A stretch of 29,037 bases of DNA from positions 1 to 29,037 of the IMG/VR virus record IMGVR_UViG_3300045988_046105. One strand, 5' to 3'. Every line of letters begins with the position of its first letter. Position 1 is the first letter of the stretch. The DNA comes from a virus. Lineage: Duplodnaviria > Heunggongvirae > Uroviricota > Caudoviricetes. This document shows positions 1,012-26,325 of this stretch, piece by piece. The notes beneath the pieces are model-generated. The model did no database searches and was not told the origin of the DNA. It was given only the letters and a program-made list of their open reading frames with translations. Made by a program: the position numbers and the translations under genes.

Positions 1012-1028
1012 ATTACCACAACGGTAAC
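1012..1028. promoter_or_regulatory. operator-like palindrome ATTACC-ACAAC-GGTAAC (site S0) within an 11-bp direct repeat ACTATTACCAC x2 (1009-1019, 1027-1037)
   Basis: Read directly; matches the ATTACC-N5-GGTAAT motif found at five other sites. Lies 17 bp upstream of the terminase small subunit ATG. Confidence 0.35.
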
Positions 1029-3778: not shown

Positions 3779-3855
3779 TGGCGTGGCATGCAGGATTCGA
3801 ACCTGCGACCAACCGCTTAGAAGGCGGTTGCTCTGTCCAACTGAGCTAATGCCAC
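3779..3855 (-). tRNA. tRNA-Arg (anticodon UCU), 77 nt, CCA encoded
   Basis: Hand-folded reverse complement GTGGCATTAGCTCAGTTGGACAGAGCAACCGCCTTCTAAGCGGTTGGTCGCAGGTTCGAATCCTGCATGCCACGCCA: 7-bp acceptor, 4-bp D stem, 5-bp anticodon stem, loop CUUCUAA, 5-bp T stem with TTCGAAT loop. Confidence 0.9.
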
Positions 3856-4176: not shown

Positions 4177-4193
4177 CTTACCTGAAGGGTAAT
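4177..4193. promoter_or_regulatory. operator-like palindrome CTTACC-TGAAG-GGTAAT (site S6) upstream of the portal operon
   Basis: Read directly; sits in the ~420-bp non-coding region 3856-4282 about 90 bp upstream of the first structural-operon ATG. Confidence 0.4.
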
Positions 4194-9384: not shown

Positions 9385-9989
9385 TGGCCTCTGTAGTAGA
9401 GATCTGTAATCGTGCGCTGTCCAATATTGGCAACAGCCGCAGCATTAACAGCCTGACGGAAGCCAGCAAGGAAGCAGGGGAATGTTCGCTGCACTTTGAG
9501 GCCTGCCGTGATGCTGTGCTTTCTGATTTTGACTGGAACTTTGCTACCAAACGCGTGGCGCTTGCAGATACGAACAATCCACCGCCTGACTGGGAATATG
9601 CGTATCAGTACCCGTCCGATTGTCTGCGCATTACTGAAATTATGCTTCCTGGTGTACGCAATCCAACAGCAGCAATGCGCGTTCAGTACGAAGTTGGTGC
9701 AGACACCAACGGAACAGGAAAGTTGATCTACACAGACCAGCCGCAGGCATGGCTCAAGTATGTCTCTCGCGTTTCAGATGTGAACATGTTTGATGCCATT
9801 TTTATGGAGGCGTTGGCCTGGCGTCTTGCGGCAGCTATTAACATGGCGCTGACTGGGAATGCAGACCTCGGTACGTTTGCCCTCAATATGTACAATCGCG
9901 TGATTCTTAGTGCTGGCTCGCATAGCCAGAATGAATCACAGGAACCACAGCCACCGGTTGATGAGTTTACCATTGCGAGGTTGTCCTGA
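9384..9989 (+). CDS. tail tubular protein A-like (adaptor/gatekeeper, T7 gp11-like)
   Basis: About 200 aa; N-terminal pattern N-AL-IG...L-E......W-F resembles T7 gp11 (recollection); precedes the gp12-like gene. Confidence 0.55.
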   Translation: MASVVEICNRALSNIGNSRSINSLTEASKEAGECSLHFEACRDAVLSDFDWNFATKRVALADTNNPPPDWEYAYQYPSDCLRITEIMLPGVRNPTAAMRVQYEVGADTNGTGKLIYTDQPQAWLKYVSRVSDVNMFDAIFMEALAWRLAAAINMALTGNADLGTFALNMYNRVILSAGSHSQNESQEPQPPVDEFTIARLS

Positions 9990-15989: not shown

Positions 15990-17788
15990 GTTACTTTGGC
16001 CTTAATCCAGTAAACCAGAATCAGCAGCTTGACGAAGCAGCATCAAATCCAGCTGGCTTTAACAGCGATGTTGGTTTTTTCGACAATGCTGTAGGAGCGG
16101 CATTGTCTGGTTTGTACTCCGGGCTGGTGGCAAAGCCAGATCAGTTGCTATGGGCAGGGATGGATAAAATCGTATCCCCGATTGCTCAGTTTGTTAACGA
16201 AAACACCTCGATCAATGACACTTCAGTTTCATACATTGCTGAGCAGAGAAAACTAGCAGAGCAGCAGGTTAAGCGGCTGACGCCTGATGCCGCGACAACC
16301 GGAACCGCCGGGCAGGTCCTTTATGGGTTGTTCGATATGGGCGGGCAGGCTGTTGTCGGTACAACGCTCGGTGGTCCGGTCGGAGGTGCTGCGGCGGTAA
16401 CTTCTCTACAGGGTTTTTCTGAGTTTGAACGGCTTACAGCACAGGGTGTTGATTTCAGGACGGCGCAGGAAGCGGGATTAGTGCAGGGTATTACTGCTGG
16501 TGCCGGAACACTGATCCCTATGAGCCTCGGGTTACGTGCTGGTGGTGCGCTGGCGGAAGGTGTGGCGGCTCAGCTTGCGCGGACGGGTGAAAGTTCAGTG
16601 CGACGCGCCGCAGCAACAGCAGTACGTGCAACGCCAGATATTGCCTATGCCGCAGGTACAAATATTGCGTTCGGTATGGCACAGCGTGGGCTTACTGCAA
16701 AAACGCTTCGTGATGGTGGCTATAGCGAAATGGCTAACCAGTATGATGTGTTGGATCGACAGGCAATTGCTATTGATGCTGTTCTTGGGGTGGCGTTTGG
16801 TGGTGTCGGCAGATTTATTAACTCTCGCGGCGAGTCTACAAGCGCACCAAATTTTTCACCAGTTGATATCGATGCTGCACTGGCGGCGAATGCCGCTCAT
16901 CATGCTGAAATTGATATTGCTCCCGGCGTGCCGATCAACGTGCTTTCGCGTAATTCGCACATTCAGGCTCTGCGAAAAGCCATGTCTGATGTTAGCCAGG
17001 GGAGACCTGTAGACGTTGCCAGCATTGTTGAGTCTGCATCTTTCAGTGAAATTCCTGGACGCAAGAGTCTGCTGTCTCAGGCAGTTAATGAGGCTCTGTC
17101 ATCTGTAGATGATGGAGTAACGGCGCGCGCTATAGAAAATCGGTTGCTTGAAGAACAGGCCGCGCAGCTTTTGCCGCGTGGCGATAGACAGGTTTACCAG
17201 TCTGAAATCGCTAATAGCCAACGAATTATTGAAAATCTCACTGAACAGCGCGCACAAATTCTTGCAGAAGATCCAGCCGGTAGCGGTAAGGCTTTATCTC
17301 GTGCTCGATCAGATAAACAGGCCAGACTTCGCGATATTGACCAACGAATCCGGCAGGCACAAGAACGCCTGGAATTTTCTCGTAACGCGTTGGCACCGCA
17401 TGAGCCTGGCGGTCAGTTTTTTGAAGCTCGAGCAGAACTGGCTCGGAGACAACAGGCAGAAAGTGAACTTAATGCTCAGGCTGTTTCATTCTATAAAACA
17501 GCAGAGGTCAGGACGCCAGACGAAGTATCTCCTTTTGAGCCTGATAAAATATTGCAACAGGCAGAACAAAAAATGATGTCAGATCAGGCAGGAGATATTG
17601 ATTTGCGCATAGCTGAAGACTCGCTGCTTGAATCACCTGACATGATAATCACCGTGCTGGATGATGATGGTAATCCACAATCGCGCAGTGCGCGTGAAGC
17701 ACTGGATGAAGCGAACAGGGAAAGTGAGCAGGCACTACAGGATTCCAGCCTGTTTGATGTCGCTGTGGCGTGTTTCTTGAGAGGTTAA
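15986..17788 (+). CDS. internal virion / ejection protein
   Basis: 600 aa, Ala/Gly-rich with coiled-coil-like C-half; overlaps upstream stop; position in ejection-protein block. Confidence 0.5.
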   Translation: MSYFGLNPVNQNQQLDEAASNPAGFNSDVGFFDNAVGAALSGLYSGLVAKPDQLLWAGMDKIVSPIAQFVNENTSINDTSVSYIAEQRKLAEQQVKRLTPDAATTGTAGQVLYGLFDMGGQAVVGTTLGGPVGGAAAVTSLQGFSEFERLTAQGVDFRTAQEAGLVQGITAGAGTLIPMSLGLRAGGALAEGVAAQLARTGESSVRRAAATAVRATPDIAYAAGTNIAFGMAQRGLTAKTLRDGGYSEMANQYDVLDRQAIAIDAVLGVAFGGVGRFINSRGESTSAPNFSPVDIDAALAANAAHHAEIDIAPGVPINVLSRNSHIQALRKAMSDVSQGRPVDVASIVESASFSEIPGRKSLLSQAVNEALSSVDDGVTARAIENRLLEEQAAQLLPRGDRQVYQSEIANSQRIIENLTEQRAQILAEDPAGSGKALSRARSDKQARLRDIDQRIRQAQERLEFSRNALAPHEPGGQFFEARAELARRQQAESELNAQAVSFYKTAEVRTPDEVSPFEPDKILQQAEQKMMSDQAGDIDLRIAEDSLLESPDMIITVLDDDGNPQSRSAREALDEANRESEQALQDSSLFDVAVACFLRG

Positions 17789-17793
17789 ATTAA

Positions 17794-20268
17794 ATGAGAC
17801 AGGAATGTATACAAGCGGTTCAGCAGGCGGCGCAGCGCATGTTAACGGCGCGAGAAATACAGAACATTGAAGACCGCATTTATCGAAATATGCGCTCCAT
17901 TGCTCGTGATGACCCTATGTCGTGGCGACAACTTTCCGAATCAGAGCGGCTATATCGAGCAGCACAATTGGCATCTGAAGAATTACAGCGAGAAGCGGCA
18001 TTAAAGAAACGTCGTGTGGCTCTCACTATAGCCGCGCGTCAGAGATTGGATAAATTTATCAATAGCTATCAAGGGGCTGATGGGAAACTTGGCGCTCTTA
18101 ACCGTACTATAGCTTTTAATGCAGACGGTAAATCTAATTTCCTCTCTGTTGAATCCAGAACAAAAGCCACCCGTGATTATGCATTGAGTCAATTGCAGGA
18201 GGCATTCGAAGCAGTTGATCCTCGCTTTTTTGGTCTGTTTGAAGATGAAGCGGGCGTACGTGACCTGGTATATGAAATGCGGGGGCAAAATACTGGCAAT
18301 GCTAAAGCAAGAAACGGTGCTAAGGCGTGGAGAGAAGTTACAGAGCTGCTGCGCCGCCGGTTTAATGATGCTGGTGGGGACATTGGCTATCTCGAAAACT
18401 GGGGGATCCCTCAACATCATTCTATGGAAAAGGTTGGGGCAGTATCAAAGGATAAGTGGGTTAGCGATGTTATAGGTAAGCTGGATCGCAAATATTATAT
18501 CCGAGCCGATGGACAACTGATGAACGATGCCGAGTTGTCTTCATTTCTTGGAGAGGCTTATAACACGATCGCTACTGGTGGGCTGAATAAGCTTACTGAT
18601 ACCGGAATGCGAATTTCCGGCGCACGTGCTAACCGTGGTAATGCATCACGACAGATACATTTCAAAGATGCAGATTCCTATCTGCAATATCAGCAACTTT
18701 ATGGCGATCGCTCTCTATGGGAAATCATGGTCGGTCACCTGGAAGGTATCAGTAAAGATATTGCACTGGTGGAAACATATGGCCCAAACCCCGATCATGT
18801 TTTCCGCTCTCTTCTTGATCAGGTGAAGGCAGAAACGGCAACAGCTAACCCGAGTAAAACCGGTAAAGTCGAGCGGCTGGCGAACAACACAGAGAATCTG
18901 TACAACTTTATTTCCGGAAAGACACAGCCTGTAGCGAATCCGCACATCGCGCGATGGTCTGACAATATCCGCAACTGGCTGGTTGCCAGCAGACTCGGAT
19001 CCGCGTTGCTGTCATCGTTCTCTGATCTTGGAACCATGTATCTGTCTGCGAAGGTTACCAACCTTCCAATGAACCAGTTATTCCGCAACCAGCTTGAAGC
19101 TATGGACCCAACGAACCGTACAGAACTTGCGCGGGCTCGCCGCGCTGGTCTGGCGATGGAATCTCTACTTGGCAGCGTTAACCGCTGGGCGATGGATAAT
19201 ATGGGGCCGTCAGTGTCTCGTTGGGCGGCAACGGCGGTAATGCGTGCCAGTGGGCTTACAGCATGGTCAGATGCGCACAAGCGCGCCTATGGCGTAACCA
19301 TGATGGGAAGCCTGGGAGAAGTAGTGTCACGGACACCAGACCTTCGTAGCCTCGATGACTCTGATTTTCGTATCCTGAAAAGCAAAGGGATTACTGACAC
19401 AGACTGGAGCGTATGGAAGCTGGCGAAACAGGAGGACTGGGGGAACGGTAATAATACGATGCTGACACCGGAAAGCATTATGCGTATCCCTGATTCAGCA
19501 GTTAAACATCTTGGTGAGCCTGAACGCGTGAAATTTGAGGCAATGCGTAAACTGCTCGGTGCCGTAACTGAAGAAGTTGATATGGCTGTTATTACACCGG
19601 GAGCACGTGAGCAACTGATAACCGGTTCTGGTATTCAGCGTGGAACATGGAAAGGTGAATTAACGAGAAGTGTTTTCCTGTTTAAATCGTTCCCTATCTC
19701 GGTTGTTATGCGTCACTGGTCACGCGCTATGGGTATGCCGTCTGCTGGTGGGCGTGCGGCATATATTGCGACGTTTATTGCCAGTACGACCATTCTTGGC
19801 GCTTTGTCGCAGCAACTTAACGACCTTGCGTCTGGTCGTAATCCTCGAGAGATGACAGGAGAAGATGCCGCAAAATTCTGGCTTGGTGCTCTACTGAAAG
19901 GTGGTGGTCTTGGCCTTTACGGTGACTTTTTATTGTCAGATCACACTAGGTACGGAAGCGGCGCGCTGGCGTCGATGCTTGGCCCGGTAGCTGGTCTGGT
20001 TGATGACGTAGTGAAGATTGCTCAGGGCATACCGTTAAATGCTGTGGAAGGGAAGAGTGAGCAGACTGGTGGTGATCTGGTGAAGCTGGGGAAAGGTTTG
20101 ATGCCTGGTGCGAATCTCTGGTACTTGAAGGCGGCTCTCGATCACATGATCTTTAACCAGATGCAGGAGTATTTTTCACCAGGCTATTTGCGTAAAATGG
20201 AGCAACGTTCGAAGAAAGAGTTTAACCAGACATACTGGTGGCGACCACAGGATGTCACTCCGCAATAA
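17794..20268 (+). CDS. internal virion protein D-like (gp16 position)
   Basis: 824 aa, SD GAGAGG; last large gene of virion block. Confidence 0.55.
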   Translation: MRQECIQAVQQAAQRMLTAREIQNIEDRIYRNMRSIARDDPMSWRQLSESERLYRAAQLASEELQREAALKKRRVALTIAARQRLDKFINSYQGADGKLGALNRTIAFNADGKSNFLSVESRTKATRDYALSQLQEAFEAVDPRFFGLFEDEAGVRDLVYEMRGQNTGNAKARNGAKAWREVTELLRRRFNDAGGDIGYLENWGIPQHHSMEKVGAVSKDKWVSDVIGKLDRKYYIRADGQLMNDAELSSFLGEAYNTIATGGLNKLTDTGMRISGARANRGNASRQIHFKDADSYLQYQQLYGDRSLWEIMVGHLEGISKDIALVETYGPNPDHVFRSLLDQVKAETATANPSKTGKVERLANNTENLYNFISGKTQPVANPHIARWSDNIRNWLVASRLGSALLSSFSDLGTMYLSAKVTNLPMNQLFRNQLEAMDPTNRTELARARRAGLAMESLLGSVNRWAMDNMGPSVSRWAATAVMRASGLTAWSDAHKRAYGVTMMGSLGEVVSRTPDLRSLDDSDFRILKSKGITDTDWSVWKLAKQEDWGNGNNTMLTPESIMRIPDSAVKHLGEPERVKFEAMRKLLGAVTEEVDMAVITPGAREQLITGSGIQRGTWKGELTRSVFLFKSFPISVVMRHWSRAMGMPSAGGRAAYIATFIASTTILGALSQQLNDLASGRNPREMTGEDAAKFWLGALLKGGGLGLYGDFLLSDHTRYGSGALASMLGPVAGLVDDVVKIAQGIPLNAVEGKSEQTGGDLVKLGKGLMPGANLWYLKAALDHMIFNQMQEYFSPGYLRKMEQRSKKEFNQTYWWRPQDVTPQ

Positions 20269-20487
20269 AAGGAGATATGATAGTTCAAATAACTTTTATT
20301 GTACTAATATGTGCAGCGTTTTTATGCTATTCATACATTTTGATAAAAATGGGTTTCAATTGGAATCTCTGTTGCGTGCAGCGGCATGGTTCGGCTTTGT
20401 AGTATTCGGAATTGTATTGTTCGGAAGAATAATAAAATAACTAGTTAATTTGTGGATTGGTGCTGTTTTTCCATGATAGGGGTAATT

Positions 20488-20868
20488 ATGAGAAAAGTAT
20501 TTTTGATTTTTGGATTTATGCTTCTCGTTGGATGCCAGTCAGCTGCACAGTTTGAAAGAAATATGCTTACGTGGCGCGGGCAGAGTATAGACGCAATGGT
20601 TCAGCAGTGGGGGTATCCTCAGGGAGAGCTTACATCTCCAGATGGAAACAGAGTGTATGTTTACTCAAGCTCTGGTAGTTATAACGTACCACAAACCACA
20701 ACGTATAATACTACGTCTAATCTAATTGGTAATACTATATATTCAAACACATACGCAACAACTGATGGCGGTTATACACTCCATTTCAGTTGCTCTGTTT
20801 ACGTTGAGTTTGGTGCTGATAAGATTATTAAAAATGTTACATGGCGCGGTAATAATTGCGTTGCGTGA
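20488..20868 (+). CDS. lipoprotein (moron; candidate superinfection-exclusion / receptor-masking factor)
   Basis: ATG 20488 with AGGGG SD; signal peptide MRKVFLIFGFMLLVGC with lipobox LVGC; AT-rich gene unlike flanking virion genes; stop inside palindrome copy 3. Confidence 0.6.
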   Translation: MRKVFLIFGFMLLVGCQSAAQFERNMLTWRGQSIDAMVQQWGYPQGELTSPDGNRVYVYSSSGSYNVPQTTTYNTTSNLIGNTIYSNTYATTDGGYTLHFSCSVYVEFGADKIIKNVTWRGNNCVA

Positions 20869-21154: not shown

Positions 21155-21694
21155 TTACCAAAACTTGTACCACGGGGATTTATCCTTCAATGGACAATCC
21201 TTCCATCGTGTGGCCAACCATTCATATTCTTTAAAATATGTGTTTATGTTTTCTTTTTCTCTAATGGCTTGTATAAGAGGTAGCGCAATCTGATAGTTAT
21301 TTACAACGGAGCTGTAAAATACTTCCTTAATCATGGTCTCATCATAAGTTTTCCGCTTCACGCTCACAGCCATGCGTTCGTAGAAACCTAGACAGTAAAT
21401 TATTTCTCTCTTCTCTGTCTTTTCTTCATCCGTAAGATCAGCCTGCCCATTGCTTGGATACATATAAGAGCGGAATGATTTGTTCGATTCGTGAATGCGG
21501 CGCATAGTAGATAGGCCTTTCTTATAATCTACATCAAACCTGCTTTCACCAAGGAATACTGAAGTGTGTACTTTTCTCGCTGTATTTACATTATAAATAA
21601 TAGTAGCGATAGCTATGAACAAGCCAAGCGAAACCGCGACTGCACTTACGATTTGAGCCACAGCCATGGCAAATTGCATTTCTTCACTTAACAC
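21155..21694 (-). CDS. membrane-anchored protein with ~150-aa predicted cytoplasmic domain (candidate exclusion/abortive-infection factor)
   Basis: GTG 21694 with GGAGA SD 6 nt upstream (alternative ATG 21679). One long N-terminal TM helix followed by basic residues. AT-rich. No family recognised. Confidence 0.55.
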   Translation of the reverse strand: MLSEEMQFAMAVAQIVSAVAVSLGLFIAIATIIYNVNTARKVHTSVFLGESRFDVDYKKGLSTMRRIHESNKSFRSYMYPSNGQADLTDEEKTEKREIIYCLGFYERMAVSVKRKTYDETMIKEVFYSSVVNNYQIALPLIQAIREKENINTYFKEYEWLATRWKDCPLKDKSPWYKFW

Positions 21695-21903: not shown

Positions 21904-22596
21904 TCAGAAGAACCCTGCTTTGTCGTTGATGTACTCCGCGTGCGTCTGGATATCACGCAGGCATTTGCTCACACCAACGATGTAGCAGAACATGGTGGTC
22001 AGCTCCGCCGCCGCGCCCGATACATCGTGCCCGTCTTCCTGTAACTGGTTCAGCAGATTCATCAGCAGTGAGTTTTCCGTCAGGCCGAGAACACCAGACG
22101 GCGAGTGAATCAGGCTGCGGTAGCCGGGCTTCAGTGGGGCGCTGTAGGTTTTGTTCTCTATCTTCATTGCCTGCATCACTGCTGATGCTGTGGCGTTGGC
22201 TACCTGGTCGGCAACCATCTTTATGCGTTCTTCCTGCGGGAGCGAGTTTTTAATGTAACTTCCGGTGCGGCGGATCTGAGGAAGAACCTCACCTGTAACC
22301 CATTCAAGAAATCTGAATGCTCTCGTTCCCTCAGTCATTGCCTCTTTGCAACGCAGAATAAGGATGTAGAGACCTGATTCTGAAACGATGGATAGTTCTT
22401 GTATTCCACCAGGGGTCTGTATTGAATACAGCCCCTTTTTGTTCCAGCCTTTTTTATCAAGTTTTCTCGCTTGTGTAACATCAATATTCAAAGCATTGCA
22501 CACATCTTTGGTGACAAACCAAGGTTCTCCGTCAATCATGAACATACGGATCTGGCAGGATGACTCAAAGGAAAAGATGGAAGGTTTGGTATTCAT
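21904..22596 (-). CDS. Bro-N domain protein with distinct ~80-aa C-terminal domain (antirepressor-like)
   Basis: ATG 22596 with AAGGTGA SD (track ORF extends to 22641 via non-ATG start). N-terminus FESSCQIRMFMIDGEPWFVTKDV...GLYILILRCKEAMTEGTRAFRFLEWVTGEVLPQIRRTG matches the Bro-N pattern (recollection); C-terminal domain is paralogous to 23743..24000. Confidence 0.75.
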   Translation of the reverse strand: MNTKPSIFSFESSCQIRMFMIDGEPWFVTKDVCNALNIDVTQARKLDKKGWNKKGLYSIQTPGGIQELSIVSESGLYILILRCKEAMTEGTRAFRFLEWVTGEVLPQIRRTGSYIKNSLPQEERIKMVADQVANATASAVMQAMKIENKTYSAPLKPGYRSLIHSPSGVLGLTENSLLMNLLNQLQEDGHDVSGAAAELTTMFCYIVGVSKCLRDIQTHAEYINDKAGFF

Positions 22597-22745
22597 GGCG
22601 ATCACCTTTGTAGTTAGGTTAATCACCACCGCTGAGACCAATCAGATGGTGGTGAACTGTGCAGAGTTGGTCTTACCGGCTACAAAGGAACCCGGCGCAC
22701 CTTTCGGTGCCCCCACACAGCCCACCATAGAATAGGTGCGCTTTA

Positions 22746-22843
22746 CACATAAAAAAACCGCTTATGCGGCATATGTGCCTCTGTAGTAATCCGGGAGACC
22801 AATCCCGGCACTGGATTTTGCCAGTGCCCGATTACTATGGCAC
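22746..22843 (-). ncRNA. structured 5' leader / candidate small RNA upstream of Bro-N gene, ending in hairpin plus U7
   Basis: Nested helices: GTGCC(22775-79)/GGCAC(22839-43) and GTAATC/GATTAC enclose two stem-loops (CCGGGA-N6-TCCCGG; GGCACTGG-N6-CCAGTGCC); then CCGC-N4-GCGG plus U7 (22751-22769). The 69-aa ORF over this region has no ATG and spans promoter elements. Confidence 0.35.
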
Positions 22844-22862
22844 AAGAGGAGTGCGATGTAAA

Positions 22863-22879
22863 TTTACCGCAAAGGTAAT
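22863..22879. promoter_or_regulatory. operator-like palindrome TTTACC-GCAAA-GGTAAT (site S1) overlapping -10/+1 of predicted Bro-N promoter
   Basis: Read directly; minus-strand promoter TTGATT-N18/19-TATCAT predicted by eye. Confidence 0.45.
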
Positions 22880-22955
22880 GATAAGCGCGGATAAATATTA
22901 AAATCAACCGTATTTGGTTGATTGCGTTTAACGCTTGATCACCTGAAAGCAAGAT

Positions 22956-22972
22956 ATTACCTTTAAGGTAAT
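22956..22972. promoter_or_regulatory. operator-like palindrome ATTACC-TTTAA-GGTAAT (site S2) just upstream of RBS of 22992..23720, plus half-site ATCACC-TGAAA at 22938-22948
   Basis: Read directly; perfect 6-5-6 dyad. Confidence 0.45.
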
Positions 22973-22991
22973 GTTATTGTGAGGAAAAGCA

Positions 22992-23720
22992 ATGGAAGTT
23001 TTCTGGATAGTTGTTGGTGTGGTTGCGGTGATTATTTACGTTATCAACCAGAACAAGACTAAGATCTCTGATCGTACGGTCGTTAATCATAACAAAACGA
23101 TAAAGACCGAAGATGGGGAGATAACGATTAATCGTACACAGGTGATAGAACACACCTCTACTCAGTTTCAAAAAACTGGAGGTAATGCGCCTAATATTTC
23201 CGCACCTCCTGCTTATGATAGTGCGGTAATCCAGACATATTATAAACAGCAGGAGTTAGCAAAAGAGAGGCAACTGATTCAGCCAAAGCCGTTTACAGCT
23301 GAGCTTCCACCTGGAGTGTCAATGCGTCCGGCATATCATGGAAGATTCCCTGGTGATGACATATCGTCTCAGTCATCTAAAAAAGCACCTCAGGCAGTAT
23401 CAGAGCCAGCAAGAATACCTTCTGTATCGCCGCCAAAAGAAGAATCAGCTAACAGAGTTTCAAGTGGTAGCAAGCAGTGCTTGCGATGCAGAATAAACCT
23501 ACCATATGAAAAATTCAGGAAATCGTCAAAAAATCCAGATGGATTGACTAAGTGGTGTGCAAGGTGTCTCGATGGCCCAAAGAATACACGCCATATGAAG
23601 TGGTGCCCAATTTGTAATGTCCGCAGAAAACGAACAAGCTTTTACCCTAATAATCAAAATGCGGATGGCTTAATGGCATGGTGCAAAACGTGCTGGGACG
23701 AGCACAAAGCGAAACGATAG
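22992..23720 (+). CDS. membrane-anchored protein with Pro-rich linker and tandem C-terminal zinc-ribbon-like repeats
   Basis: SD GAGGA 6 nt upstream; N-terminal TM helix; two repeats of C-x2-C-x17/18-(P/A)DGL-x3-WC-x2-C (CLRC...PDGLTKWCARC and CPIC...ADGLMAWCKTC). Confidence 0.6.
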   Translation: MEVFWIVVGVVAVIIYVINQNKTKISDRTVVNHNKTIKTEDGEITINRTQVIEHTSTQFQKTGGNAPNISAPPAYDSAVIQTYYKQQELAKERQLIQPKPFTAELPPGVSMRPAYHGRFPGDDISSQSSKKAPQAVSEPARIPSVSPPKEESANRVSSGSKQCLRCRINLPYEKFRKSSKNPDGLTKWCARCLDGPKNTRHMKWCPICNVRRKRTSFYPNNQNADGLMAWCKTCWDEHKAKR

Positions 23721-23744
23721 GCCGCTCTTGCGGCCTTTAAATTT
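23720..23744 (+). terminator. terminator hairpin between convergent genes
   Basis: GGCCGC-TCTT-GCGGCC followed by TTTAAATTT. Confidence 0.5.
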
Positions 23745-24000
23745 ACCGGGTTTGTTTTCGTAATTGTTCGGCACAATAGTCGAGATGTGTTTGCAGATCC
23801 CGCATAGACATCTGTGAGCTGGTGACGTAGTTAATCAGTGCAGTCAGTTCGGCAAGTGGGCCATCGACATTAAATCCATCCTTATCGAGATCCCGGAGTA
23901 ATTTCATCAAGTGCGATCCCTCCACCAGTGACCTGACGCCTCCCGGCGTGTGAATCCTTTCGGTAAATCCGTCTTCCAGTGGATAGTGATACCGCTGCAT
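23743..24000 (-). CDS. small protein (85 aa) paralogous to the C-terminal domain of the Bro-N protein; predicted SOS-inducible antirepressor-like factor
   Basis: ATG 24000 with GGAGA SD 8 nt upstream (track ORF starts further upstream at a non-ATG). Roughly 45 percent identity by eye to the Bro-N C-terminal region. LexA-box-like palindrome 22 bp upstream. Confidence 0.6.
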   Translation of the reverse strand: MQRYHYPLEDGFTERIHTPGGVRSLVEGSHLMKLLRDLDKDGFNVDGPLAELTALINYVTSSQMSMRDLQTHLDYCAEQLRKQTR

Positions 24001-24021: not shown

Positions 24022-24037
24022 CTGTATATTTATACAG
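24022..24037. promoter_or_regulatory. LexA (SOS) box CTGTATATTTATACAG overlapping predicted -10 of the small-gene promoter
   Basis: Matches CTGT-N8-ACAG with AT-rich spacer (consensus TACTGTATATATATACAGTA); sits on a TATAAAT -10-like element of the minus-strand promoter. Confidence 0.65.
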
Positions 24038-24075: not shown

Positions 24076-24092
24076 ATTACCTGAAAGGTAAT
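24076..24092. promoter_or_regulatory. operator-like palindrome ATTACC-TGAAA-GGTAAT (site S3); half-site TTTCAGGTAAT at 24132-24142
   Basis: Read directly; perfect 6-5-6 dyad between the small LexA-box gene and the tailspike gene. Confidence 0.45.
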
Positions 24093-24195
24093 ATCTATTC
24101 GTATTTACAGCCTTTTTATCCATATGTGGTTTTTCAGGTAATAGAATAACCAGATATGCGGCGCAACGGGTGCTGCGACTATCTGGAGATTTAAC

Positions 24196-26325
24196 ATGAC
24201 GGTCTCAACCGAAGTTGACCACAACGAATACACCGGTAACGGCGTTACGACATCGTTTCCGTATACTTTTCGAATTTTCAGAAAATCAGACCTGGTTGTT
24301 CAGGTGTCTGACCTGAACGGGAACGTAACAGAATTGGTCCTGGATACCGGTTATACGGTAACTGGGGCGGGCACTTATAGTGGCGGTTCTGTGGTTCTTC
24401 CGTCTCCGCTTGCTACTGGCTGGCGAATTACGATAGATCGTGTGCTTGATGTAGTGCAGGAGACAGACCTTCGCAATCAGGGAAAATTTTTCCCCGAAGT
24501 GCATGAAGATGCCTTTGACTACCTGACGATGCTGATCCAGCAATGTTTTGGGTGGTTCAGACGTGCATTGATGAAGCCCTCTCTGCTTGCAAAATATTAC
24601 GATGCAAAGCAAAACAGAATTTCTAACCTTGCAGATCCATCACTTGAGCAGGATGCTGTAAATAATCGCTCAATGCGTAATTATGTCGATGCTGCAATCG
24701 CCGGGGTTGTTGGTGGTTTTGGTTGGTTTATTCAGTATGGTTCTGGGGCTGTGTACCGAACGTTCCAGGATAAGATGAGAGACACCATTAGTGTTCGTGA
24801 TTTTGGTGCAAAAGGAGACGGCATAACAGATGATACTGTAGCAATTCAAAATGCTATTAATGCAGTACCAGAAGGGGCTATACTTGGATTTTATGGTGGT
24901 GAATTTGTTTTTGATAAGGTTGAATTGTTTAAGCCAATAACATTAGTTGGTGATGCAACGTTAATTCACAACGGATTTAGAATAAAATCTAGCAGAATCC
25001 GATCACTTTTATCTGGCGTTCAGAAATGCAAGGATTACTCCGAGTCTTCAAGAGCATTTTATTGCTATGCAAATGAAGACCAAAGAGATTATGACGATAT
25101 TCAGATTTTATTTAATAGATTTGAAGGTTTCTTTTACTCTACGGCATTTGTTGCAAAAAACTATTATTTGGAGAATGACCCTAATTCAAGAATTGTCAAA
25201 AACACAAAAGTAATAGGGTGTACATCAGTTGCTCCTGATTCTGTAAATGCCGGTCATTTTCAACATATAGGCGTTACAAATGCTGAAACATCACATAACT
25301 CAACTTATGGCGGACAAAATGCAACATCATACAACTTCATTAACCAGAATGGATTTGTAAGGATTATAGGAAATTATGACCATAACAATAGCTATGGTTC
25401 ATGTGAGCTTGAGAACTCAATGGTGAGTAACTCAGTCATATCAGGTAATACGTTTTCGTCATATTTATGGGTGGATGATACAAGTAATGTTACTATTTCT
25501 GGAAATACCGTTTCATCAAGGATCAAAGTAACATCGCAAACTGACGATGTTCATAATATAACCATATCAGCAAATACCACAAAACGGATTACTATAGAGC
25601 AATTTGGAGAATCGCCGACAGGTCTGGTATATGGTGCATTAATTTCCTGCAACACTATTACTGGCGACAGTGATGGAAGTTCAGACATTTTATGTGCGTC
25701 ACTTGTTACAGGTGAAATTTCATCAAATTATTGTCATGGATCAGAAAAAAATATATCAATTGTCCGCCTGGATTCTTCTGATATAACTGTTAGAAACAAT
25801 AAAGGAAACAAAGGATTACTTACAATAAGTAACGATGGTGGAAGGATAATTGAATATGGCAATGATTCTATGGTTCTGTCTGGAAGCATAGATAGCAGAC
25901 ATATACATAATTTATTACATCCAGACACATCGTATTTAGACCTACCGGGGAAATATCTGCACGGAACTAAATATACTGGCAGTATCCCCCCCGGTTCCAC
26001 AGGAACTGTATCACTTCAAATACCATCAGGGGCAAGCCTTGTTTTCAGGGGCGTTTCTATATGGGTTCTAATTAGAGATGTTAGCAATAACAATATATCG
26101 TCATTCAGAATTGATGGTTCATATAGAGTTGTTGGTGGAAGTGTTGGTCTTAGTTTTGCTGATGCTTATTCGAAACTCGGGGTGGATGCAAACTCTATAA
26201 CAGTGTCAAACAATAACAGCACTTCTGGCAATATCAGCATAGCAATTAAAAACACAGATTCATCAAAAACCCTTCAGGTTACTGTTATGCCGGAGGTTTC
26301 AAGCAGGTTAGGTATTGAGGAATAG
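24196..26325 (+). CDS. tailspike protein with beta-helix (pectate-lyase-like) receptor-binding/depolymerase domain
   Basis: 709 aa, SD TGGAGA; conserved-looking N-terminal module then DFGAKGDGITDDTVAIQNAI motif typical of right-handed beta-helix glycanases; C-terminal two-thirds AT-rich with Asn/Ser/Thr-rich repeats. Confidence 0.85.
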   Translation: MTVSTEVDHNEYTGNGVTTSFPYTFRIFRKSDLVVQVSDLNGNVTELVLDTGYTVTGAGTYSGGSVVLPSPLATGWRITIDRVLDVVQETDLRNQGKFFPEVHEDAFDYLTMLIQQCFGWFRRALMKPSLLAKYYDAKQNRISNLADPSLEQDAVNNRSMRNYVDAAIAGVVGGFGWFIQYGSGAVYRTFQDKMRDTISVRDFGAKGDGITDDTVAIQNAINAVPEGAILGFYGGEFVFDKVELFKPITLVGDATLIHNGFRIKSSRIRSLLSGVQKCKDYSESSRAFYCYANEDQRDYDDIQILFNRFEGFFYSTAFVAKNYYLENDPNSRIVKNTKVIGCTSVAPDSVNAGHFQHIGVTNAETSHNSTYGGQNATSYNFINQNGFVRIIGNYDHNNSYGSCELENSMVSNSVISGNTFSSYLWVDDTSNVTISGNTVSSRIKVTSQTDDVHNITISANTTKRITIEQFGESPTGLVYGALISCNTITGDSDGSSDILCASLVTGEISSNYCHGSEKNISIVRLDSSDITVRNNKGNKGLLTISNDGGRIIEYGNDSMVLSGSIDSRHIHNLLHPDTSYLDLPGKYLHGTKYTGSIPPGSTGTVSLQIPSGASLVFRGVSIWVLIRDVSNNNISSFRIDGSYRVVGGSVGLSFADAYSKLGVDANSITVSNNNSTSGNISIAIKNTDSSKTLQVTVMPEVSSRLGIEE

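Follow-up and report, generated by a model that had tools for sequence, protein, structure and literature searches.

The window analysed here, the whole 29,037-nucleotide (nt) stretch of the IMG/VR virus record IMGVR_UViG_3300045988_046105, is the late region of a podovirus prophage of the epsilon15/phiV10 type (genus Uetakevirus). Its genes run from terminase and portal through the virion proteins to the tailspike gene (24196..26325) and the lysis genes. Directly upstream of the tailspike gene lies an oppositely oriented block with a gene for a 230-amino-acid (aa) protein that carries a Bro-N domain and a small gene, ant, for a stand-alone protein of 85 aa (Table 1). A first-pass annotation, made from the letters of the DNA, had delimited both coding sequences (CDSs) correctly, and their limits agree with RefSeq CDSs of Escherichia coli G5, which shares a 4-kb ant region with the window at 100% identity. 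The motif AAAGGTG precedes the ATG of the Bro-N gene (22596), and GGAG precedes that of ant (24000). This region is matched in 572 of 5426 complete E. coli genomes, or about 1 in 10.

Table 1. Features of the antirepressor block and its flanks, in the order in which they are met when the minus strand is read
Feature	Position	Strand	Basis or remark
Palindrome, third copy	24077..24091	.	77 nt upstream of ant ATG, in the region between the divergent ant and tailspike genes
LexA box CTGTATATTTATACAG	24022..24037	.	Exact CTGT-N8-ACAG with AT-rich spacer; 21 nt upstream of ant ATG
ant (type A), 85-aa stand-alone antirepressor	23743..24000	-	Orthologue of SPC32H Ant and epsilon15 gp19
GC-rich hairpin, terminator-like	23719..23736	.	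Terminator scan: AGGCCGCTCTTGCGGCCT then TTAAATTT
Palindrome, second copy	22957..22971	.	93 base pairs upstream of the copy at 22864
Palindrome copy	22864..22878	.	Abuts the -35 of the isrK promoter; same offset in related isrK modules checked
Sigma-70-like promoter TTTACA-17-CATAGT, extended TG	22834..22862	-	Promoter scan; would start isrK at 22827
isrK-family small RNA with own terminator	22751..22827	-	Rfam RF01394, 74.7 bits vs gathering threshold 50
Decoys inside isrK: a1 TTGGTCT and b1 CTACAGAGG	22796..22802 (a1, isrK loop); 22778..22786 (b1)	-	Complementarity to C4
C4-family antisense RNA	22645..22732	-	Rfam RF01695, 78.6 bits vs gathering threshold 45; full-length model match
C4 b' loop CCTTTGTAG	22680..22688	-	Pairs with b2 CTACAAAGG and b1 CTACAGAGG
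C4 a' single strand AGACCAA	22667..22673	-	Pairs with a2 and a1 (both TTGGTCT)
Bro-N gene leader	22605..22641	-	C4 targets a2 TTGGTCT (22635..22641) and b2 CTACAAAGG (22605..22613)
Bro-N::Ant-like antirepressor (type B), 230 aa	21904..22596	-	Open reading frame list; phrog_130 'anti-repressor Ant', E=3.5e-51
Bro-N domain, aa 16-106	22279..22551	-	Pfam PF02498, 51.4 bits vs cut-off 25.6
Ant-like C-terminal domain, aa 149-230	21907..22152	-	Paralogue of stand-alone Ant

That annotation had further proposed that a domain of about 80 aa occurs twice in this block, once fused to Bro-N and once as the entire small protein, and pairwise statistics bear this out. BLASTP aligns the two products with 35 of 84 positions identical (42%; E=6e-20) and 2 gapped positions, the match taking in aa 141-222 of the longer protein and almost the entire shorter one. 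All of the shared motifs that had been picked out by eye (H-P-GV, LM-LL, DG-V-G, AELT, and RD-QTH-Y) are found, and 16 positions are invariant across 30 sequences of the stand-alone type (type A) and the fused type (type B). Likewise, phrog_450, the family of the stand-alone protein ('unknown function'), matches both proteins (E=1.5e-47 and 3.2e-37). Neither Pfam nor NCBIfam has a model over the shared domain, and a weak DUF724 match to the small reading frame (E=0.013, under the cut-off) was discarded.

The stand-alone copy is readily identified. In a phmmer search of the PDB, its residues 2-84 match chain 5D50_E, 'Anti-repressor protein' (E=3.5e-46), and 74 of 84 positions are identical to Ant of the Salmonella phage SPC32H; the counterpart in phiV10 is annotated as similar to epsilon15p19. 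Passages of a secondary source that describe the 5D50-type Rep-Ant complex depict SPC32H Ant as a tetramer that engages two dimers of the repressor Rep and takes the tetrameric repressor apart (PMC9638917). Such antirepressors are produced after SOS-driven self-cleavage of LexA, as stated in a passage of PMC7380047. The LexA box in front of ant is equally placed in SPC32H, Tyrion, BUCT554, and the IMG/VR loci examined, and Klebsiella phages have it with one mismatch (aTGTATATATATACAG). A longer reading of the gene, of 126 aa from an ATG at 24123, was rejected because it would cross the LexA box and because the crystallised homologue has 86 aa. The terminator-like hairpin directly follows the ant stop codon and is shared with a convergent reading frame on the plus strand.

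The C-terminal domain of the fused copy points to the same structure. Its residues 149-225 match 5D50_E without gaps (phmmer, E=9.1e-14), and for an AlphaFold2 model of aa 141-230 (predicted local distance difference test score [pLDDT], 77) the only meaningful Foldseek matches are 5D50_H and 5D50_G, with a probability of 1.00, target-normalised template modelling scores of 0.65 to 0.73, and E values of 0.015 to 0.022. In the full-length model, a confident Bro-N part (pLDDT, ~80) is joined by a disordered linker (residues 118-153) to a helical C-terminal domain of moderate confidence. The best fold matches of the Bro-N part are weak and comprise the Ski/Dachshund DHD and the N-domain of baculovirus Orf22. 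Matches of the Bro-N region in the PDB to anti-Thoeris Tad2 proteins (E=0.048) and to a DAP-like protein (E=0.0057) were set aside as due to chance, being short or of low complexity. Pairwise paralogy, the match of both proteins to the 5D50 Ant, and the fold match of the domain model together place one domain in two genes.

We can hardly credit a reading in which the resemblance is fortuitous or one of the copies is a decaying, untranslated remnant. Decay of this kind might be seen in phiV10, where a frameshift within the Ant-like domain divides the Bro-N gene (L002, 2561..3240) into p23 (194 aa) and p22 (29 aa); either the gene is truly inactivated or the sequence contains an error. In the window, however, both copies are intact and have good ribosome-binding sites, full-length Bro-N::B proteins number 963 across Enterobacteriaceae at E<=1e-10, and close homologues of both proteins have been expressed and tested. 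With a pairwise E value of 6e-20, the alignment statistics and this conservation refute chance or decay as explanations.

For the fused copy, the tested homologue is ORF4 of phage ZX5, which together with phiV10 p23 ('putative anti-immunity protein') is a direct orthologue. ORF4 is 81% identical to the Bro-N protein of the window overall and is identical to it from about residue 105 to the end, over the C-terminal half. According to the relevant passages of PMC9782041, overexpression of ORF4 reduced lysogens from 10^9 to 10^6 (~1000-fold) and lowered rep mRNA by 75%.

The suggestion that the two copies are differently regulated is also upheld. Whereas ant follows a consensus LexA box, the fused copy is without such a box and has an isrK/C4 antisense-RNA cassette in its place. 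The -10 element of the predicted promoter ends 7 nt ahead of the first base of the Rfam isrK match. Further downstream, the Bro-N gene has its ATG only 48 nt from C4, and within this short leader the b2 element overlaps the Shine-Dalgarno sequence, 8 nt before the ATG. The predicted pairings comprise 9 base pairs (bp) for b':b2 and 7 bp for a':a2. A scan of the window for a and b elements revealed none near genes beyond the isrK-C4-leader module, with one stray b-like match at 9388..9396. Targeting of the stand-alone ant by C4 was consequently rejected, the elements being confined to the module.

To this single case can be added a survey of 79 IMG/VR loci and several phage genomes, in which we found 90 isrK-C4 modules, 81 of them parsed. 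Every one of the 81 keeps b':b2 pairing over 8-9 bp and a':a2 pairing over 7 bp, and the nine modules that escaped the isrK pattern show the same matching elements by eye. This constancy of pairing coexists with considerable variation in sequence. The a element occurs as GGTCT, GGCGT, and TGCAC, with a fourth form, TGAGAC, in an unparsed Klebsiella module; the b element has three forms, CTACAAAGG, CTAAAAGG, and CTAAGTGG; and E. coli phages show at least six a/b combinations. Where a phage has two or three modules, no module fully cross-matches another. Such compensatory covariation at three places at once supports a P1-type block by C4, with the upstream a1/b1 elements as probable competitors for C4. 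The frame of the 28-aa open reading frame inside C4 changes among the variants. The cassette as a whole is matched in 237 phage records.

Two further observations concern this RNA module. Several IMG/VR loci (L016, L036, L007, L040, L082, and others) carry two or three isrK-C4-antirepressor modules, often convergent, in which the a/b combination and the N-terminal domain differ from module to module and the C-terminal Ant-like domain is nearly the same. In addition, gene callers seem to have been misled by the RNA gene. The ZX5 record (L094, 1159..1272) has a CDS for a 37-aa 'ash family protein' directly upstream of ORF4, at the site where C4 is expected by synteny, and in 279-aa 'Bro-N' proteins (e.g., P0214) C4 has been read through in frame. 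Both kinds of call are probable mis-annotations of the RNA gene.

A second recurrent element lies near both antirepressor genes. The palindrome TTACC-N5-GGTAA is present in five exact copies in the window, against 0.00 to 0.03 expected. Two are distant (1013..1027 and 4178..4192) and the other three, listed in Table 1, flank the antirepressor genes. A copy 75-77 nt upstream of the ant ATG is also found in SPC32H, Tyrion, BUCT554, and Kp4865-1. Moreover, in SPC32H and the G5 prophage, palindromes cluster to either side of rep and beyond the replication genes (L095, 5029-7549; L003, 11773-14930). Paired copies are 62 or 93 bp apart. Judged by this distribution, the palindrome most likely serves as operator for Rep or a Cro-like protein, and its sequence would be compatible with repression as well as with activation.

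What, then, is the target of the two proteins? The first-pass annotation had suggested a shared one, for example, a repressor or a host factor. The repressor part of this suggestion stands: it is established for the close homologue of the stand-alone protein by the Rep-Ant complex of 5D50 and would extend to the fused copy by homology. Support for a host factor is lacking. A 194-aa repressor of the G5 prophage matches 5D50_A, the Rep chain (E=4e-42), and a Rep homologue is present in all 34 of the 34 phage records that carry the Ant domain. Within the E. coli phages of this group, Rep is at least 98.5% identical to that of G5. The G5 prophage itself, located at guaA (L003, E. coli G5 chromosome, 17177..19711), has lost the genes from terminase to capsid and carries partial CDS flags, and is probably defective; it still has Rep and both antirepressors.

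Against this near-constant Rep, the proteins that carry the domain are strikingly modular. A B domain 91-100% identical to that of the window sits on at least four Bro-N variants that are only 59-66% identical, and the same near-identical domain is also found on AntA (proteins of 216-218 aa) and on P22_AR_N (312-314 aa), the latter version following an Arc-like repressor and a sar RNA, with TL-2011b gp42 as an example. More distant versions occur on Rha and ORF6N; a search for these Rha- and ORF6N-fused variants in sequenced phages returned only cross-matches to the same Uetakevirus set. In all cases, the shared part starts at a Y-x-x-P-L motif, which is the start of the stand-alone Ant. A near-identical B domain on unrelated N-termini, combined with a near-invariant Rep, argues that the C-terminal module is the part that is matched to Rep.

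The same evidence bears on an alternative in which the C-terminal domain of the fusion serves only to oligomerise (tetramerise) the protein, while Bro-N is the real effector, acting on DNA or on a host factor, so that the two proteins would have no target in common. The tetrameric state of SPC32H Ant indicates that this fold indeed forms oligomers, Bro-N, whose fold is related to the Ski/Dachshund and APSES domains, is predicted to bind DNA, and many Bro-N proteins have unrelated C-termini. Yet the 85-aa domain suffices as an antirepressor on its own in SPC32H, it is found only in phage records that also encode Rep, and its near-identical occurrence with five unrelated N-terminal families next to a Rep at least 98.5% identical to that of G5 fits a module matched to Rep. 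We therefore regard a purely oligomerising role as quite unlikely.

The family is small, as 1.84 billion proteins yield 57 representative clusters at E<=0.001. Types A and B are both present in E. coli, Enterobacter (Tyrion), and some Klebsiella members, some of which have the domain in three places, and Salmonella members have type A only. The two types do not seem to be fully isolated from each other. One 84-aa protein (P0112) is a natural chimera that is of type A in its N-terminal half and of type B in its C-terminal half, with the junction at the shared DGHDVSGAAAELT motif, and A-type Ants of Klebsiella carry a B-like form of this motif, which suggests recombination between the paralogues.

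We consider it likely that the window encodes two paralogous antirepressors of an epsilon15/phiV10-type prophage, an SOS-triggered Ant and an RNA-locked Bro-N fusion, that act on the same Rep. The idea behind the first-pass annotation, one repressor-binding module under two control regimes, is thereby supported. Both copies carry the small helical Ant domain that in SPC32H pulls Rep off its operator as a tetramer. Type A would be the SOS trigger: DNA damage would remove LexA from its box, and the Ant that is then made would inactivate Rep. Type B would be a second antirepressor, under an RNA lock like that of P1 immI. Here, the promoter would drive isrK, and read-through of the isrK terminator would yield C4 and the Bro-N mRNA. 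By pairing of its a' and b' elements with the Bro-N leader and its Shine-Dalgarno sequence, C4 would block translation, a block that the decoy copies a1 and b1 in isrK could lift, as IsrK does for AnrP in Gifsy-1. In other words, type B might offer an SOS-independent route to the same Rep, open upon infection or superinfection before cognate C4 builds up or upon a rise in IsrK, although the conditions under which it is made are those we infer from the layout of the module.

Several points weigh against this proposal. The Rep gene lies outside the 29-kb window, and binding of the same Rep by the fused copy is something we infer from homology and from the overexpression phenotype of ZX5 ORF4. 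The structural match depends on how the protein is modelled: Foldseek found no significant matches in the PDB for the full-length model and did not retrieve 5D50, which was reached only with the model of the domain alone, at a modest E value of 0.015. Furthermore, the identity of Ant does not closely track that of Rep. Where E. coli and Salmonella phages are compared, identity amounts to 87% for type A but to only 43% for Rep, which makes arguments from co-divergence weak; we dropped such co-divergence of Ant with Rep as uninformative about the target. The operator-like palindrome next to the isrK promoter implies that the B module may itself be transcribed in a Rep-dependent manner, which would complicate the superinfection scenario. 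Finally, A and B of one phage are only 35-39% identical, and their specificities could thus differ.

This last point leads to an alternative in which type B is aimed elsewhere, either at the Reps of heteroimmune relatives, in cross-talk like that of Gifsy and Fels, or at type A itself, in mixed tetramers that tune or poison it. Cross-talk of antirepressors between prophages has been documented (PMC3121763), and the frequency of the region among E. coli genomes makes encounters between relatives likely. Likewise, the chimera P0112 implies that the halves of A and B are structurally compatible. However, overexpression of ORF4 affected the lysis-lysogeny decision of ZX5 itself, as far as the passages of PMC9782041 on this experiment go, and the divergence of B across E. 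coli, Enterobacter, and Klebsiella phages (100, 78, and 52% identity) roughly, if loosely, parallels that of the cognate Rep (100, 78, and 47%). Salmonella relatives, moreover, manage on type A alone, so that A needs no B. On balance, we think a different target unlikely.

Returning to two antirepressors of one Rep, a broader version can be conceived that we put forward tentatively, and with some doubt. The Ant fold could be a portable Rep-binding 'warhead' carried on interchangeable N-terminal domains behind orthogonal RNA locks, with two to four antirepressors per phage directed against one almost invariant Rep. The a/b elements might then constitute a second, RNA-based immunity, and the palindromes at every ant promoter, which resemble a Rep operator, might form a positive-feedback commitment switch. 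If this were true, the a/b elements would decide which homoimmune relatives break each other's lysogeny, and the N-terminal domains would serve some role other than repressor binding.

Other genes lie within and around the block. Between ant and isrK lies a plus-strand open reading frame of 242 aa (22992..23720; phrog_6762) with weak Stc1 and endonuclease VII-like matches, a hydrophobic N-terminal stretch that by eye is likely a membrane helix, and two CxxC...CxxC zinc-ribbon repeats. It is missing at the same position in phiV10 and ZX5, which marks it as an inserted cargo gene. The interval from the last virion gene to the Bro-N gene holds a DUF4760 protein (21155..21694, minus strand; PF15956, E=8e-31) and a 138-aa open reading frame (20452..20868, plus strand; phrog_3716) with a hydrophobic N-terminus ending in a cysteine, both of which are likely moron cargo. 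Further away, a tRNA gene (3782..3855, minus strand; Rfam, 73 bits) is located between the terminase and portal genes, and a tRNA-Arg is annotated at the corresponding site in close E. coli relatives.

The components described here are of already known kinds, namely an SPC32H-type Ant, a Bro-N antirepressor, and immI-like control by isrK and C4. What appears to be new is the link between them, previously unstated, by which the crystallised Ant has a paralogue in the C-terminus of the Bro-N antirepressor; likewise, the domain does not appear to have been recognised before as a module that is portable and placed under orthogonal RNA locks. It is routine to call a protein with a Bro-N, AntA, Rha, or ORF6N domain an 'antirepressor' without knowledge of the part that contacts the repressor. 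Given that the fused C-terminal module is homologous to a crystallised, self-sufficient Rep-binding protein, the repressor-binding role can be assigned to the C-terminus, and the role of the Bro-N domain becomes a clean, testable question. It would also follow that a widespread group of E. coli prophages has both an SOS-gated and an RNA-gated route to induction, a point of relevance to spontaneous induction and to how related prophages interfere with each other. At a practical level, annotations can be amended: the 85-aa 'hypothetical protein' encoded beside the tailspike gene can be named Ant, and the 'ash family protein' CDS of ZX5 probably overlies the C4 RNA.

It is worthwhile comparing this arrangement with known systems. 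One of the closest is that of SPC32H, in which the ant gene has the same length as the stand-alone gene of the window, is likewise divergent from the tailspike gene, and has the same LexA box and upstream palindrome. SPC32H and other Salmonella members have this single copy, whereas the prophage of the window has a second, Bro-N-fused copy, and SPC32H Rep is only 43% identical to the E. coli Rep. In ZX5, the small Ant gene next to ORF4 is annotated as hypothetical in the record. The ZX5 paper, in the passages concerned, names ORF4, ORF12, and ORF21 as three lysogeny-related proteins and describes ORF4 by its Bro-N domain only; its passages on anti-repressors make no mention of the adjacent small Ant or of C-terminal homology to SPC32H Ant (PMC9782041).

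The RNA control has its counterpart in Gifsy-1, where isrK, orf45 (STnc1160), and anrP follow each other as a member of the same isrK family, a C4-like RNA, and an antirepressor gene. In that prophage, IsrK acting in trans switches on translation of AnrP and promotes prophage induction (PMC4825925). The proteins themselves differ, since the Bro-N protein of the window has no detectable similarity to Gifsy-1 AnrP (STM2616, an ORF6N-domain protein; E=3.0). Gifsy-1 also employs translational coupling via orf45, whereas the short open reading frame inside C4 of the window is not kept in frame among variants. The immI region of P22 (mnt-arc-ant with sar RNA) is another case. The P22-type module with its Arc-like repressor and sar RNA is absent from the window, but relatives (TL-2011b gp41/gp42 and locus L006) add a third copy of the domain on an Ant of the P22_AR_N type.

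The logic of the module is also matched by the immI region of P1 and P7 (c4 antisense RNA, icd, and ant), whose details were reportedly worked out by Citron and Schuster in 1990. There, too, the antirepressor gene is preceded on its transcript by a C4-family RNA, the a' and b' elements of this RNA are complementary to upstream a1/b1 and downstream a2/b2 copies, with b2 on a ribosome-binding site, and specificity variants exist in related phages. Two differences stand out. The module of the window is without a coupled reading frame like icd of P1, its b2 overlapping the Shine-Dalgarno sequence of the antirepressor gene itself, and, in contrast to P1 and P7, its a1 and b1 copies reside inside a separate, terminated small RNA, isrK.

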